A DNA stretch of 26,300 nucleotides from a virus (Duplodnaviria; Heunggongvirae; Uroviricota; Caudoviricetes). Each line of letters opens with the position of its first letter. Positions within the stretch are counted from its first letter, which is position 1. The position numbers and the translations under genes are program-made. Of the stretch, positions 1 through 5,801 are shown piece by piece. The DNA is taken from IMG/VR virus record IMGVR_UViG_2602041671_000009; one strand, written 5' to 3'. Below the pieces are notes generated by a model. That model worked only from the letters and a program-made list of their open reading frames with translations. It had not been told where the DNA came from and ran no database searches.

Positions 1-1104
1 TTGCCGGCAAAAAGCAAGCATAAAGGAAGTATCCTGATAATAAGTGGTGGTCCCGGGTTACCAGGCATAAATCCTTATATTAACTTTGACTGGCCAGTCA
101 CAAATCTTCGTGAGTCATGGGATATTATTGGATTTGATCCTCGAGGCGTCGGACAGTCCACTCCGACAATAAACTGCCGGCAATCAGATACAGAGACTCA
201 GGAAAACATAACCGAAAAGCAACAAGTATTAAATAAAATTAATGCCTGTATCCATAATACCGGAGCCGAAGTCATTCGCCATATCGGCTCTAACGAGGCT
301 GTATACGATATTGATCGTATTAGGCAAGCCTTGGGGGATAAACAACTGACAGCCGTGGCGTATTCGTATGGAACTCAAATTGCAGCCTTATATGCAGAAC
401 GTTTTCCCTACAACGTAAGATCTATCGTTCTTGATGGAGTCGTCGATATCGATGACCTGGAGGACAACTTCACATGGCAACTCAAACAGGCACAGAGTTA
501 TCAGGAAACGTTTGATCGCTTTGCATCCTGGTGTGCGCGTACAAAAAGTTGCCCGCTTTCTTCAGACAGAGATAAGGCAATAACTCAGTTCCATGAGCTA
601 TTATCAAAATTACATCACAAACCTTTATTAGACAGTAAGGGAGAAAATATATCTTCAGATGAACTCATATCATTAACAACAGACCTTCTGCTATGGCGTT
701 CATCATGGCCAACCCTTGCAACTGCCATACGCCAGTTCTCTCAGGGGATTGTCAGTAATGAAATTGAAACTGCGCTCAGTGCTCCGATAGCCTCAGAAGA
801 GTCAAGCGATGCTTCGGGGGTAATCCTCTGTGTAGATCAGGGGGATGAGCAATTAACACCAGAAGAGCGAAAATCCCGAAAAGACGCTCTTGCGAATGCC
901 TTCCCGGCTATTAACTTTGACAATGGACGTTCCGATTCACCTGATTTTTGTGAATTATGGCCAATACATAGCGACCTGAACAAAACTCGCCTGAAAAATA
1001 CTGTTCTGCCCTCTGGTTTACTGTTTGTAGCACACAAATACGACCCAACAACGCCCTGGATTAATGCCCGTAAGATGCAGAGAAATTTTCCAGCCCGTTA
1101 CTAA
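1..1104 (+). CDS. alpha/beta-hydrolase fold peptidase (prolyl aminopeptidase / S33-like), 5' partial
   Basis: Frame is open from the window edge to TAA at 1102-1104. Product has GFDPRGVGQS and an A-Y-S-Y-G nucleophile-elbow-like motif typical of alpha/beta hydrolases. True start probably lies upstream of the window. Confidence 0.55.
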   Translation: MPAKSKHKGSILIISGGPGLPGINPYINFDWPVTNLRESWDIIGFDPRGVGQSTPTINCRQSDTETQENITEKQQVLNKINACIHNTGAEVIRHIGSNEAVYDIDRIRQALGDKQLTAVAYSYGTQIAALYAERFPYNVRSIVLDGVVDIDDLEDNFTWQLKQAQSYQETFDRFASWCARTKSCPLSSDRDKAITQFHELLSKLHHKPLLDSKGENISSDELISLTTDLLLWRSSWPTLATAIRQFSQGIVSNEIETALSAPIASEESSDASGVILCVDQGDEQLTPEERKSRKDALANAFPAINFDNGRSDSPDFCELWPIHSDLNKTRLKNTVLPSGLLFVAHKYDPTTPWINARKMQRNFPARY

Positions 1105-1264
1105 CAATAAATGGTGATGGGCATACATTAGCTCTCACCGGAGTTAATTTATGTGTAGATAAAGCAGTTGTACATTACCTGATCACTCCACAAAAATAGA
1201 AAATATATACTGCCCAGGAAATTCTGAAGCAGAAATACAATAATTTCAAAATATTCCGCTATTT

Positions 1265-1298
1265 GCTCCCAATGCAAAACATATATTGCATTGGGAGC
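1265..1298. repeat. 13-bp perfect inverted repeat (GCTCCCAATGCAA ... TTGCATTGGGAGC) with short AT spacer
   Basis: Read directly from the sequence; lies in the intergenic gap between the hydrolase and the Tfa-like fragment. Confidence 0.6.
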
Positions 1299-1426
1299 AT
1301 ATTCATATTTTTGTTATTATTGTATGAAATCGTCTCATGTACACGGTCCTTTTTTCGCCGAAAACTGATATTACTTTAATCAAAAGTTGACGTGCCAGAT
1401 TCGAAGTAAATTTATAAAATATCAAA

Positions 1427-1732
1427 TCAATATACATTTTGCACCTTCGAGATAGTAATGACTGTTACTGTAACATGAGTTACAAACAGCTTCATACCCA
1501 GAGCTACTGATGTATCAACTCGATTCAACAATACCCGATATTTATTCCATGCCTCCAGCAACGATCTTTCTTCCTCCGTTGCGATTTCCAGATCTACAGC
1601 ATCCTGCAGTGGCGCAATATACTCACTGAATTCCTGGATGTAGAACTGTGTGGTGACGGTCTTCCAGCCATTCGGCTCCTGCTGTATCGAAGCATACCAG
1701 GCTATTTCAATATCGCTATGCTGCGGCAGCAT
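1427..1732 (-). CDS. tail fibre assembly (Tfa)-like small ORF, probable gene remnant
   Basis: 101-aa ORF whose central segment ([38 protein letters not shown]) is near-identical to the C-terminal domain of the Tfa at 4238-4813. Flanking residues are unrelated. Confidence 0.45.
1505..1622. repeat. direct repeat copy 1 (tfa 3' segment)
   Basis: About 120 bp aligns at roughly 85-90 percent with 4270-4388 in the same orientation; identical 40-bp core at 1567-1606 versus 4333-4372. Confidence 0.7.
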
Positions 1733-1871
1733 TTAACCCCTTGTAATTCATCGCCATAATTGATTTAATTCACAAATAAAACTATAACATGGTGAAATTA
1801 ATGAAAAAAACACAGATGATGGGGCTAAAATTTACACACCACTTACCCTAAAGCTTTATGACTGGTGGGTT

Positions 1872-2455
1872 TTGGGAGTATCAAATCGGCTTGCATGGGG
1901 ATGTCCTACAAAGGAACACCTTCTTCCACACTTTCTGGAACATTTAGGTAACAACCATCTGGATATTGGTGTTGGAACTGGGTTTTACCTTACTCACGTA
2001 CCTGAGAGTAGTCTGATATCTTTAATGGATTTGAACGAAGCTAGCCTGAACGCGGCATCTACAAGGCTGGGGAATCAAAAATTAAACATAAAATTAACCA
2101 TGATGTTTTTGAACCTTATCCCGCGGCGTTACATGGTCAATTTGATTCCATTTCCATGTTTTACCTTCTTCACTGCCTGCCTGGAAATATATCTACAAAA
2201 AGCTGTGTAATACGCAATGCGGCGCAGGCCTTAACTGACGATGGAACTCTATACGGAGCCACAATTCTTGGCGATGGAGTTGTGCACAATAGCTTCGGTC
2301 AAAAACTGATGCGCATTTACAATCAGAAAGGCATCTTTTCAAACACAAAAGATTCCGAAGAAGGCTTAACACATATACTCTCAGAGCATTTCGAGAATGT
2401 TAAAACCAAGGTTCAAGGTACTGTAGTAATGTTTTCCGCTTCAGGGAAAAAATAG
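1872..2455 (+). pseudogene. class I SAM-dependent methyltransferase, frameshifted
   Basis: ORF 1872-2210 carries LDIGVGTG (SAM-binding motif I) and an MDLNE acidic motif. ORF 2156-2455 in another frame continues with FDSISMFYLLHCLP and DGTLYGATIL. The second frame is open from 2045 (...NHDVFEPYP...), so the frames swap inside the A-rich run around 2077-2092. Confidence 0.45.
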
Positions 2456-3002
2456 CATCCAACCGCAGCACGTTCTTGCATAAGGCGTGTCTGCGGTTTT
2501 TCAACTATTCAGATACATCACTCCCATCACATTCATTCCTCCGCATCATAGGCATATAGGCTATATCACCTTGATATTTTTCTTCTTCAGATAAAAACTG
2601 TTATCTATGTATACTTTTAAACCCAATCCGTGTAGAGTCTCTGCATAAGATAGTTTGCAGTTGCCACTTCAGCTTGCGCCATAAACCGCCTGATTTTTGC
2701 CGCCACCTGTTAGCATTCCTGTATACCTGAAACGACAATGTTTATCTACGAACTTTAAGAACACCCAGGATAAAAATTGTCAACTATATCATATATAACA
2801 CATTACTAATTCGAGGCTATATGAACAGCATACTGATAATCACTTCTCTCCTTATCATATTCAGCATTTTTAGTCATGCCCTAATAAAATTAGGGATTGG
2901 CATATCCAATAACCCAGACAAAACCGATGTATAAGTCAACATATCCTGAATCAGACATACAATATCGCAATGAAAATCAATAATATTTTAAGGAATATCT
3001 TC

Positions 3003-3236
3003 ATGAAATCAAAAGACACCCTAAAGTGGTTCCCTGCGCAGCTTCCTGAAGTAAGAATTATCCTAGGGGATGCTGTAGTGGAAGTAGCAAAACAGGGAAG
3101 ACCTATCAATACCAGAACATTGCTTGATTACATTGAAGGAAACATAAAGAAAAAATCATGGCTGGATAACAAAGAATTATTACAAACAGCGATATCAGTT
3201 CTTAAAGACAACCAAAATTTAAATGGTAAAATGTAA
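3003..3236 (+). CDS. YdfK/YnaE-like small prophage protein (77 aa)
   Basis: ATG at 3003 preceded by AAGGAA about 9 nt upstream. Product MKSKDTLKWFPAQLPEVRIILGDAVVEVAKQG... matches my recollection of the Qin/Rac ydfK/ynaE products that sit next to pin genes. Long AT-rich region upstream. Confidence 0.55.
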   Translation: MKSKDTLKWFPAQLPEVRIILGDAVVEVAKQGRPINTRTLLDYIEGNIKKKSWLDNKELLQTAISVLKDNQNLNGKM

Positions 3237-3552
3237 TATAATAAACTTACTTTTTTATCATTTTTCCACTTTAACAACATTTTGCTCCACTTTTCCACGA
3301 TCAAACAACTTGAAATCTGGTTAAAATAACACGCAACACTATTCTTCTTCCTTGAGTCCGCCCGGAACTCGAAAAACAAACCGAGTTAAAGCCATTTTTC
3401 ACAAAATCGATTTTGGGTCTCACCAAAATTACGGGGTTGCATACGCATTCGTTTATTTTCGAACGTGTACATACAAATATGCACAAAAATAATCAAAATT
3501 ATTTTCTGAGATGCATTATGATATGAACACCAATTTCGTATAGAGTCTCACT

Positions 3553-4142
3553 ATGTCTCGAATTTTTGCTTACTGTCGGATATCAACGCTGGATCAGACC
3601 ATCGAAAATCAACGCCGGGAAATCGAAAGTGCAGGTTTTAAAATCAAACCTCAGCAAATAATCGAAGAACACATTAGCGGCTCAGCAGCAACCAGTGAGC
3701 GTCCTGGTTTTAACCGGTTGCTTGCTCGCCTGAAATGTGGTGATCAATTGATTGTGACAAAACTGGATCGCCTTGGTTGTAATGCAATGGATATCAGGAA
3801 AACAGTGGAACAACTGACCGAAACAGGTATCAGAGTGCATTGCTTAGCATTGGGGGGCATTGACCTGACCAGTCCAACAGGAAAAATGATGATGCACGTA
3901 ATTTCAGCAGTCGCTGAATTTGAACGAGACCTTTTACTTGAACGCACTCATTCCGGGATAGTAAGAGCCGCGGCGCAGGGAAACGTTTTGGTCGACCACC
4001 TGTGTTAAATGAAGAACAGAAACAGGTGGTATTCGAACGAATTAAGTCAGGTGTAAGTATAAGTGCCATTGCCCGGGAATTCAAAACCTCGCGGCAAACC
4101 ATTTTAAGAGCCAAAGCAAAACTTCAGACACCTGACATATAA
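3553..4142 (+). pseudogene. pin: serine recombinase / DNA invertase (PinR/PinQ-like), frameshifted
   Basis: ORF 3553-4008 encodes the catalytic domain (YCRISTLDQ with nucleophilic Ser, LDRLGCN...). The C-terminal HTH ([53 protein letters not shown]) is in a different frame from 4002 to TAA at 4140-4142. The frame break maps to the GGG/AAA run at 3978-3983. Confidence 0.7.
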
Positions 4143-4237
4143 AATAATCTCGGTGTGAGATGCTTTACGTCTTCCAAGCCCCCTTCCTTGCCGTAAATGG
4201 AAAGATACATCTAATTATAGAATTTATATGTTTTACC

Positions 4238-4813
4238 CTACGGCAGTGCTGGCCATTCAATATCCTGTGCAGTTGACGTATCAACACGGTTCAGCAACAC
4301 CCGATACTTTTTCCAGGCTTCCAGCAATGAGGTTTCTTCCTCCGTTGCGATTTCCAGATCTACAGCATCCTGAAGTGGCGCAATATGCTCACTGGCTACC
4401 TGCATCAGGCTGTTTTTTGTTTCTTCCGCCTCTCGGATCCGGAACAGTTTTTCTGCTTCTGCATCTTTCACCCAGGCTGTGCCGTTCCACTTCTGAAACT
4501 CCCCTTCCGGCGATAACCAGGTAACATTTTCCGGTAACGGACCGAGTTCAGAAATAAATAACGCGTCCCCTGACGCTACGTCATAAACCGTTTTACCCCG
4601 ATGGTCTTCAACGAGATGCCACGATGCCTTATCACTGTTGAAAACAGCCACAAAGCCAGCAGGAATATCTGGTGGTGCAATATCGGTACTGTTTGCTGGC
4701 AGACCTGTATGAGGCGGAATATATGCGTCACCTTCACCAATAAATTCATTAGTTCCGGCCAGCAGATTATAAATTTTTATGGTCCGTGGTTGTTCACTCA
4801 TTCTGAATGCCAT
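4238..4813 (-). CDS. tfa: tail fibre assembly protein Tfa (lambda-like)
   Basis: 191-aa [34 protein letters not shown]... through ...[29 protein letters not shown]. Matches lambda Tfa from memory. Start overlaps the stop of the upstream fibre ORF. Confidence 0.85.
4270..4388. repeat. direct repeat copy 2 (tfa 3' segment)
   Basis: Partner of 1505-1622; same orientation. Confidence 0.7.
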
Positions 4814-5448
4814 TATGCAAGCCTCACAATATAGTTAAATGCGATGTTTTTGACGGTGTTTTCCGCGTTACCAGCAGCGTTAACGGTGATGGTGTGTCCA
4901 TGTGAACCAATCGCAACGGAGTGCGTATGAGCACCAATACCGACAGTATGCGCGTGTGCACCTGCAGATGCTGCTGTGCCGGACAGTGAATGGCTATGAT
5001 TACCATCTGTACTGGTATTCGCTAACCACCCCGTAGACATACCTACTGAGCCTTGTACACCCCAGGTATTTTGACCTGAGCTTGTATAACCATATTGATA
5101 AGTATCTTTAAAAACACTGGGGTTAAATCGACGGCCATCTCTATGGCTGTGATTACCAGCTGCATTCGTGCTGCCACTTAAACTATGGGTATGCGCACCA
5201 GTGTTATTCGTGGATTTAGTGCCGTAATCAAACGACGATGTGGTTTTCGTCCCCAAATCCGTACTGGATGCGCTGGCGCTGTGGGTATGCGATTTAATGC
5301 CGTCCTGTTCCTGAGACAATACGGCCCGACCACTGGCAGGTTTGCCCTTAATCGTCCAGCCACGCATATCCACGATGGCTTCTTTTTCCGGTACATGCTG
5401 CACGGCGGTGATGGCATACGTGCCGTCGTCGTTCTCACGGATACTCAC
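4813..5448 (-). pseudogene. side tail fibre C-terminal portion fused to an internal J segment (chimeric remnant)
   Basis: 211-aa ORF starts [27 protein letters not shown] (recalled as internal to lambda host-specificity protein J), then continues with a histidine-rich HTHS/HSHS repeat region ending ...[11 protein letters not shown], typical of Stf-type fibre C-termini. Confidence 0.6.
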
Positions 5449-5801
5449 GCACCGAAGGTAAAGCGCAGACGGTCGATGTTTGCAGACGTAATGGTGCGGG
5501 TGATCGGCGTGTCATATTTCACTTCCGTACCCAGCACCGTCTCGGAGCCGGAGGATTCAAACCCCTCCGGCGGTGTCTGCTCCTGCTCACCGGCACGGAA
5601 CACCACCGTGACACCGGAGATGTTGGTATTCCCCTCAGTGTCCAGCACCGGCGTACTGTTCAGCAGCACGCTTTTTAATCCATCCACCGGACCTTCAACC
5701 GGCCCTTCGCTGATGGCATCGATCACACTCAGCAACTGCGTGGACTTCAGGTTGTCCTTCGCTTCGCGCGGGGTATGCCCCTTACTGCTTCCTTTACCCA
5801 T
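5445..5801 (-). pseudogene. J: host specificity protein J, N-terminal 118-codon fragment
   Basis: MGKGSSKGHTPREAKDNLKSTQLLSVIDAISEGPVEGPVDGLKSVLLNSTPVLDTEGNTNISGVTVVFRAGEQEQTPPEG... matches the lambda J N-terminus. Frame stops at 5445; J is over 1100 aa in lambda, so most of the gene is missing. Confidence 0.8.

Follow-up and report, generated by a model that had tools for sequence, protein, structure and literature searches.

The window analyzed here (the whole 26,300-nt stretch of DNA) contains, between nohD/tail genes and ompT-envY-nfrA and with intD and a tRNA-Arg at the opposite end, a locus that combines tail fiber genes, an invertase gene, and accessory genes. It consists of a 101-aa tfaX'-type ORF (1427-1732, minus strand), a ybcY-type class I SAM-dependent methyltransferase gene (1789-2455, plus strand), a gene encoding a small membrane protein of the ynaM/ynfT family (2821-2934, plus strand; Pfam YnaM, E 6.5e-28, and RefSeq), a ydfK/ynaE-type gene (3003-3236, plus strand; RefSeq), which has its equivalent position in Rac and Qin, a PinR/PinQ-type serine recombinase gene (3553-4142, plus strand), an intact tfa gene with a TfaR/TfaQ-type 3' end (4238-4813, minus strand), and a 3' fragment of stf (4813-5448, minus strand), the remaining stf, lom, and most of J being deleted in the prophage. 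Upstream of pin is a promoter-like element, TGTACA-16-AATAAT (3466-3493, plus strand), a hexamer pair that a genomic SELEX study of K-12 also gives for pinR and pinQ (PMC3946193).

As presented in the window, pin is split at position 3967 and the methyltransferase gene is broken at 1803 and 2064, and both had been called pseudogenes in the initial annotation. Comparison with the genome of E. coli 94-3024 (NZ_CP009106.2) removes the ground for both calls. Across the 26,300 nt the window differs from this reference by 14 single-base deletions, with no substitution and no insertion; all 14 fall in homopolymer runs, and they strike genes indiscriminately. The pin site is one of them (CCC to CC), as are the two methyltransferase sites (A8 to A7 at 1803 and GGG to GG at 2064), and the neighboring hydrolase gene is broken likewise at 1076 and 1191. 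In the reference, pin (196 aa) and the methyltransferase gene (222 aa) are intact. Further, a 61-mer carrying the pin frameshift was absent from all 3,110 pin copies, which came from 2,594 complete genomes; it matched them at 98.4% at best, with the one-base gap as the difference. Because every difference is a one-base homopolymer deletion, substitutions are absent, and the pin change is unique, we infer that the frameshifts are almost certainly uncorrected homopolymer assembly errors. That they are genuine inactivating mutations of this isolate would agree with their presence in the window sequence itself, but this is very improbable given the uniform nature of the 14 differences in 26.3 kb and the lack of the pin change in every other copy. 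The apparent invertase, methyltransferase, and hydrolase pseudogenes of this window should therefore be read with caution, as homopolymer assembly errors.

Two copies of a tfa 3' segment flank the genes from the methyltransferase to pin. The left copy (1494-1639) and the right copy (4260-4405, within the intact tfa gene) are direct repeats with 84% identity across 146 nt, including an identical core of 40 nt at 1567-1606 and 4333-4372; an exact 40-mer repeat in 26.3 kb far exceeds chance. The direct repeat with its 40-bp core, as described in the initial annotation, is thus real, and so is the enclosure of pin, the ydfK-like gene, and the methyltransferase gene, to which ynaM, not included in that description, has to be added. 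Both copies lie on the minus strand, match Pfam Caudo_TAP, and encode the conserved C-terminal domain of Tfa. PMC9608196, with reference to North et al. (2019), describes Tfa proteins as composed of a variable N-terminal fiber-binding domain and a conserved C-terminal helical domain. The protein encoded by the intact gene at 4238-4813 covers both domains (PF02413, Caudo_TAP, profile positions 1-130 of 131, E 3e-44), and its residues 132-182 are 78% identical to residues 27-77 of TfaX' (BLASTP). Over the 37 codons shared by the two copies, about 10 nucleotide differences are synonymous and only two replace an amino acid. Since most differences preserve the residue, the copies diverged as functional genes and do not represent a recent duplication; a duplication of tfa in situ was accordingly rejected, the copies being only 84% identical with most of their differences leaving the encoded residue unchanged. 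Instead, the two copies stem from an intact tfa and from what is left of another tfa allele, both of which keep the conserved C-terminal segment.

The deletion that had been predicted to occur between the direct repeats was sought with an 800-nt synthetic junction, in its hydrolase-flank version only, and this junction was present in 0 of 5,426 complete genomes. The top Rfam match was RF02111 (IS009), which covers the right copy (4272-4470, minus strand) with 226.7 bits, over the gathering threshold of 117 bits, while the match on the left copy (1506-1709, minus strand) reaches 107.7 bits and is under this threshold. An IS009 RNA was rejected as the primary reading of the repeat, as both matches are on the sense strand of tfa and the left copy disrupts several base pairs of the model; we read the IS009 family here as Tfa coding sequence rather than as evidence of an RNA gene at this locus.

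The left segment is the relic of a tfa truncated at its 5' end, already known as tfaX in the DLP12 prophage of K-12, where the order is tfaD-ybcY-tfaX, and the two regions share 97% identity. The ORF at 1427-1732 falls short of a full-length, two-domain Tfa, as it matches Caudo_TAP (PF02413) only at profile positions 75-121 of 131 (E 9e-18). Its Tfa-like part is limited to residues 27-77, which correspond to the conserved C-terminal helical domain, and RefSeq (PGAP) labels the ORF a partial tail fiber assembly pseudogene. For residues 1-46, about 26 of which lie outside the Tfa homology, no full-length parent was found among 5.8 billion proteins, and the search returned only short fragments of 25-79 aa from E. 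coli, Shigella, and Citrobacter; phage Ayreon has only more-decayed pieces. Past the Tfa homology, the tail of the ORF enters unrelated sequence, which varies among strains. The K-12 allele and that of the window diverge just downstream of the 40-nt core, beyond which they carry different cargo (appY and a hydrolase gene, respectively). The initial annotation had named one finding that would speak against its reading, namely that the ORF is an independent gene conserved in related genomes; instead the ORF is Tfa-homologous, and it is interrupted by a TGA in K-12 and by a frameshifting 7-nt deletion in the viable phage 2G7b.

Could the relic nevertheless encode a functional small protein, i.e., a stand-alone Tfa C-terminal domain under selection that acts as a trimerization helper or an interfering decoy? 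Several viable phages carry the 101 codons unbroken, at 98-100% identity, and the ORF is kept in ev243, a phage without a full-length tfa; it is preceded by a Shine-Dalgarno-like AAGGGG. For K-12, a "protein TfaX" is listed, and among the RpoD sites of the genomic SELEX study is one in the spacer between ybcY and tfaX (PMC3946193). With this motif and the RpoD site of the K-12 spacer, expression of the relic may be possible. However, the flanking non-coding DNA is conserved to the same degree, so the high identity of tfaX' is uninformative on selection, and the K-12 nonsense codon, the 2G7b deletion, the strain-variable tail unrelated to Tfa, and the PGAP label of a partial pseudogene all make a selected function improbable.

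Judged by its sequence, Pin is an intact PinR/PinQ orthologue, not a pseudogene, and it lacks crossover sites in cis. The 196-aa protein restored from the reference has both a resolvase catalytic domain and a C-terminal helix-turn-helix (Pfam Resolvase, E 2.5e-36; HTH_7, E 3.8e-11), as expected for a serine recombinase, and it is identical to PinR at 194 and to PinQ at 192 of 196 residues. Identity to PinE is only 38%; the catalytic-serine motif is YCRISTLDQ, and its aligned counterpart in PinE is YVRVSTNDQ. The near-identity to PinR and PinQ, together with the ynaM-ydfK-pin and tfa-stf neighborhood, which matches those in Rac, Qin, and close Escherichia and Shigella loci, places it among the PinR/PinQ-type orphan invertases. 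According to a 2025 paper (PMC12529663), PinQ and PinR are active, recognize the pix sites of e14, and invert its P segment in trans, and neither Qin nor Rac showed inversions. By analogy with this published work, the Pin of the window would act in trans, its targets being hix/pix-type sites at other loci, for instance those of an e14-type P segment. In strain 94-3024, e14 is absent from icd, its usual site and the only one inspected, icd being directly followed by iraM. An invertase of the trans-acting PinR/PinQ type is also found at DLP12/argU, its third prophage site, both in a viable phage and in about 6% of complete E. coli genomes, which bears on the recently proposed role of PinQ and PinR in phage defense.

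Since pin adjoins both tfa and stf, as serine recombinase genes do in the e14 P, Mu G, and P1 C switches, and since tfaX' and pin are divergently oriented, as are the alternative tfa (U') and the invertase gene in e14-type systems, the locus could be a decayed switch in cis, in which a Pin-invertible stf/tfa segment once existed, tfaX' is the remnant of the alternative tfa, and pin is dying. The initial annotation had likewise suggested a relic of a fiber-switching module. We looked for crossover sites with a consensus pattern and with a weight matrix of half-sites, which combined the e14 sites located in this analysis with hixL and gix. The hix/gix/pix consensus had no match in the window with up to three mismatches, and the best weight-matrix score in the window was 12.1, whereas the e14, hix, and gix controls scored 28.5-31.9 and shuffled sequence reached 16.7 at most. 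One 12-mer (AAAACCAAGGTT, 2402-2413) fits the hixL core, but was rejected for its unsuitable flanks and the lack of a partner site. Relatives had also been proposed as a place to look for crossover sites near pin, and neither the complete Turner phage nor the Rac and Qin segments nor the stf-J region of a relative that retains it intact contained any with the scores of the e14 controls (28-32).

The gene arrangement argues against such a decayed switch as well. In e14, the two tfa genes lie next to each other and converge, stf contains two inverted 26-bp pix sites, and pinE is outside the invertible segment. In contrast, the window has no pair of inverted 26-bp sites of the kind used by the Hin/Gin/Cin/Pin switches and no oppositely oriented alternative stf/tfa ends: the tfa copies are direct, there is a single stf 3' end, and pin, only distantly related to PinE as noted above, sits between the tfa copies. 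Among the matches listed, the loci are colinear with the window. In a scan of one genome per species, no pinR/Q-type relative was found beside an inverted tfa pair; those in Escherichia and Shigella have a single tfa in the same arrangement, and the distant Pin relatives outside Escherichia (55-77% identity) have no tfa nearby. Moreover, 2,195 genomes as well as K-12 have tfaX' paired with the methyltransferase gene in a locus free of pin, the pin block joined the locus at a patch of its own, and the frameshift that made pin appear to be dying is artefactual. A former cis switch is thus highly unlikely, and an invertase gene beside fiber genes need not mean that a segment nearby is invertible.

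Rather than a decayed fiber switch, the locus is a clear case of lambdoid mosaicism, in which the segment coding for the Tfa C-terminal domain marks the module boundaries. It very probably represents the ordinary accessory arm, from the side tail fiber genes to attR, of a defective lambdoid prophage of E. coli at the DLP12 site (argU), assembled as a mosaic of three circulating blocks. The first block is stf3'-tfa-pin-ydfK-ynaM, about 98% identical to its Rac and Qin counterparts; the second is the ybcY-type methyltransferase gene with the truncated relic tfaX', a pair also found in K-12 DLP12; and the third is the alpha/beta-hydrolase-ompT cargo. A DLP12-type module, which we define as an opposite-strand methyltransferase gene between a full and a 5'-truncated tfa in direct orientation, located from stf to ompT at the argU site, is present in the window with the additional pin block between tfa and the methyltransferase gene.

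The comparison with Rac (stfR-tfaR-pinR-ynaE-ynaM) and Qin (ynfT-ydfK-pinQ-tfaQ-stfQ) delimits the first block. Gene order and orientation are the same, and DNA identity is about 98% from 2447/2459 to about 5000. In these two prophages the block stops about 200 bp from the prophage boundary, whereas the window continues with the methyltransferase gene, tfaX', the hydrolase gene, and ompT. Homology to the DLP12-type sequence extends to 2496, and the overlap with the Rac/Qin-type homology is a hairpin-containing patch of about 50 nt (2447-2496), where the crossover joining the two types of blocks may have occurred.

On the other side of the comparison, K-12 DLP12 (tfaD-ybcY-tfaX-appY-ompT) occupies the same chromosomal site, its methyltransferase gene and tfaX' are 97% identical to those of the window, and its full-length tfa and tfaX fragment are likewise direct and bracket the methyltransferase gene. 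It differs in lacking the 1,754-bp ynaM-ydfK-pin segment (2497-4250), in the tfa 3' terminus (...PTNPVRE), in the premature TGA of tfaX, and in having appY downstream in place of the alpha/beta hydrolase gene. Phage PhiR26_1 has the same pin-less, direct tfa-methyltransferase-tfaX form as K-12 DLP12, and the 1,754-bp segment is absent from K-12 DLP12, PhiR26_1, and ev243 with identical breakpoints. Of 5,426 complete genomes, the pin-less junction occurs in 2,195 and the pin-containing junction, in the form seen in the window, in 316. The pin-containing form is also found in Escherichia phage Turner (PP925837.1), a lambdoid phage isolated from a plaque, which is 99.5% identical over window positions 1-4998 and shares the gene order from stf to int (stf-tfa-invertase-ydfK-ynaM-MTase-tfaX'-hydrolase-ompT-int), with intact invertase and methyltransferase genes. 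Turner is a complete 48-kb phage, whereas the prophage of the window lacks most of J, lom, stf, the portal gene, and the terminase gene.

The mosaic breakpoints lie at or beside the conserved tfa 3' segment, which supports the earlier suggestion that recombination has joined different elements here. The segment coding for the C-terminal (trimerization) domain of Tfa and the 50-nt hairpin patch would serve as the homology for the exchange of blocks, although we infer from present-day variants only how, and in which order, the blocks were joined. A broader possibility, which we consider rather doubtful, is that the tfa 3' segment acts as a portable stretch of homology at which accessory cassettes can dock in any resident tfa. 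A circular or linear cassette with one copy of the segment would enter the 3' end of the resident tfa by a single crossover and would then lie between a full tfa and a 5'-truncated copy, the two being in direct orientation, which is the arrangement seen around the methyltransferase gene. This arrangement is found in three fiber contexts, namely K-12/PhiR26_1, the window and Turner, and ev243/2G7b; the last two phages have other fiber genes, yet they keep the tfa 3' remnant, the methyltransferase gene, and tfaX'.

The direct repeat described in the initial annotation is present: window segments 1494-1639 and 4260-4405 align ungapped over 146 nt at 84% identity, with an exact 40-nt core (1567-1606 and 4333-4372). 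Each copy lies in minus-strand sequence that codes for a portion of a tail fibre assembly (Tfa) protein. The full-length gene tfa (4238-4813) matches Pfam Caudo_TAP over positions 1-130 of 131, and the 5'-truncated ORF 1427-1732 (referred to as tfaX') matches at positions 75-121 only, its residues 27-77 aligning with Tfa residues 132-182 at 78% identity (BLASTP). The segment common to both corresponds to the C-terminal helical domain, which is conserved among Tfa proteins; the variable part is the N-terminal domain that binds the fibre, as summarized in PMC9608196 (citing North et al. 2019). Over the 37 shared codons there are ~10 nucleotide differences in codons that keep the same residue and only two amino-acid replacements, a pattern indicating that the copies diverged within functional tfa genes of different phages and ruling out a recent local duplication. 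The Rfam family IS009 (RF02111, gathering score 117) matches the sense strand of both copies, with 226.7 bits at 4272-4470(-) and a below-threshold 107.7 bits at 1506-1709(-), and appears to be built on Tfa C-domain coding sequence rather than to represent an independent RNA gene. Between the copies lie genes for a class I SAM methyltransferase (ybcY-type, 1789-2455), ynaM (2821-2934), ydfK (3003-3236) and a PinR/PinQ-type serine recombinase (pin, 3553-4142).

The calling of the invertase and methyltransferase genes as pseudogenes is almost certainly an artefact. Over all 26,300 nt, the window is identical to NZ_CP009106.2 (E. coli strain 94-3024) save for 14 single-base deletions (at 1076, 1191, 1803, 2064, 3967, 7389, 9010, 13148, 13774, 15375, 18625, 18686, 21166, and 24799), each of which falls in a homopolymer run; substitutions and insertions are absent. 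The pin frameshift is the deletion at 3967 (CCC to CC), the methyltransferase frameshifts are those at 1803 and 2064, and those of the alpha/beta hydrolase gene are at 1076 and 1191. A 61-mer across the pin frameshift occurs in none of the 3,110 pinR/Q-type copies in 2,594 complete genomes; its best match (98.4%) differs by a one-base gap. Judging from these sequence comparisons, both genes were very probably broken by homopolymer errors in assembly, and, given the 14 deletions, any frameshift or pseudogene call across the window is suspect.

The locus is a lambdoid mosaic of a known kind, with both parts, the DLP12 tfaD-ybcY-tfaX arrangement and the Rac/Qin pin block, already described. The window is a DLP12-site prophage of E. 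coli, located between tRNA-Arg/intD and ompT-envY-nfrA; its tfaX' and the tfaX of K-12 are orthologues. In K-12 DLP12 the order is tfaD, ybcY (on the opposite strand), tfaX, appY, and ompT, with tfaD and tfaX in direct orientation like the tfa copies of the window, and the identity to window 1503-2496 is 97%. K-12 DLP12 and phage PhiR26_1 have stf-tfa-methyltransferase-tfaX' without pin, whereas the plaque-isolated phage Turner has, as in the window, stf-tfa-pin-ydfK-ynaM-methyltransferase-tfaX'-hydrolase-ompT-int; the pin-less tfa-methyltransferase junction is found in 2,195 of 5,426 complete genomes and the pin-containing one in 316. Phages ev243 and 2G7b carry other fibre genes and no full tfa, but retain a tfa 3' remnant (~100-140 nt), the methyltransferase gene, and tfaX'. 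The K-12 prophages Rac and Qin contain a stf3'-tfa-pin-ydfK-ynaM block, ~98% identical to the window from 2447/2459 to ~5000, which ends near their own prophage boundary.

Rather than being an independent conserved gene, ORF 1427-1732 is a relic: it is Tfa-homologous, TGA interrupts it in K-12, and in 2G7b, a viable phage, a 7-nt deletion disrupts it. About 26 of its first 46 residues fall outside the Tfa homology, a search of 5.8 billion proteins gave no full-length relative of residues 1-46, and in RefSeq the ORF is classed as a partial pseudogene. A K-12 SELEX study (PMC3946193) places an RpoD/H-NS site between ybcY and tfaX, in the spacer.

The suggestion that tfa-involving recombination joined two elements is supported in substance. 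K-12, PhiR26_1, and ev243 all lack the same 1,754 bp (2497-4250), with identical breakpoints. At the first breakpoint, DLP12-type homology (to 2496) overlaps Rac/Qin-type homology (from 2447/2459) in a 50-nt patch holding a hairpin, CCGCAGCACG...CGTGTCTGCGG, with TTTTT after it in the window; the patch is common to DLP12-type, Rac, and Qin sequences and was passed over by a simple scan for terminators. A crossover in this patch (2447-2496) probably joined the pin block. The second breakpoint is the tfa 3' terminus (4251), where the protein end (10 residues) is TfaR/TfaQ-like, unlike the ...APDIEWPTNPVRE of TfaD. Just past the 40-nt core, the tfaX' allele of K-12 ceases to resemble that of the window, the two leading to appY and the hydrolase gene respectively, and the ev243 fibre module was exchanged at a junction within the tfa 3' segment; together with the tfa-terminus breakpoint, these place several independent mosaic boundaries at this conserved segment. 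From present-day variants we infer a history in which blocks would have been exchanged by homologous recombination at short shared sequences, and the 5' edge of tfaX' would stem from at least one older illegitimate join. In the methyltransferase-ynaM spacer there is also a weak, sub-threshold match to the Shigella sRNA family CssrB (RF02799; 2464-2601(-), 28.5 bits against a gathering score of 76, E 0.005).

The initial annotation had alternatively proposed a relic of a fibre-switching module. With its frameshift repaired after NZ_CP009106.2, Pin (196 aa) carries Resolvase and HTH_7 domains and is identical to K-12 PinR at 194 and to PinQ at 192 of 196 positions, but shares no more than 38% identity with PinE from prophage e14. 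PinQ and PinR are reported to be active, flipping the 1,797-bp e14 P segment in trans, and no inversions were found in Qin or Rac (Kirigo et al., Nucleic Acids Res 2025, PMC12529663). Promoter-like TGTACA-16-AATAAT lies at 3466-3493, the hexamer pair given for pinR and pinQ in the SELEX study (PMC3946193).

Candidate crossover sites were scored with the e14 pix sites, recovered as an inverted repeat in K-12, as positive controls along with hixL and gix. The controls score 28.5-31.9; the best score in the window is 12.1, below the shuffled-sequence maximum of 16.7, and a consensus-pattern search gave no match, so Pin has no detectable substrate in cis. Scoring likewise recovered no site in the complete 48-kb Turner genome, a relative's intact stf-J region, or the Rac and Qin segments. 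Besides this lack of sites, orientation and gene order are unlike those of e14, tfaX' and the methyltransferase gene are paired independently of pin, and in close Escherichia and Shigella loci (one genome per species) the pinR/Q-type gene always accompanies a single tfa in the same arrangement. A decayed fibre switch is therefore not supported. In strain 94-3024, icd is directly followed by iraM (NZ_CP009106.2 1991269-1992945), which leaves the usual e14 site without this element and its P segment. A 12-nt stretch within the methyltransferase 3' end, AAAACCAAGGTT (2402-2413), equals the 12-nt core of hixL; it was rejected as a crossover site given its unfit flanks, the lack of a partner, and about one such match expected by chance.

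The repeats could in principle mediate a deletion, but an 800-nt synthetic deletion junction built with the hydrolase-side flank is present in none of 5,426 genomes. The least ordinary readings remaining, both unproven, would have accessory cassettes docking by homology at the conserved tfa 3' segment, or a functional C-domain-only ORF.

Elsewhere in the window prophage, most of J, lom, and the 5' three-quarters of stf are lost (5370-5450 and 4813-5801); as 5371-5449 is a short internal J piece, at least two deletions are indicated. Portal and terminase genes are likewise truncated in the reference annotation. A strong terminator-like hairpin (1264-1299(+); 14-bp stem, 7 G-C pairs) lies downstream of the hydrolase gene. 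Strain 94-3024 also has a P4-like element with an HK97-type head module between roxA and phoQ. More distant Pin relatives outside Escherichia in the one-genome-per-species scan have no tfa nearby, as in Erwinia oleae, where two adjacent, divergently oriented pinR/Q-like genes (1280-2649 of that locus; 71% and 77% identity) occur. The ynaM-ydfK-pin-tfa block is found at 97-99% protein identity on contigs of Alistipes, Draconibacterium, and Caldithrix bins and a Nocardioides assembly, most likely reflecting E. coli contamination.
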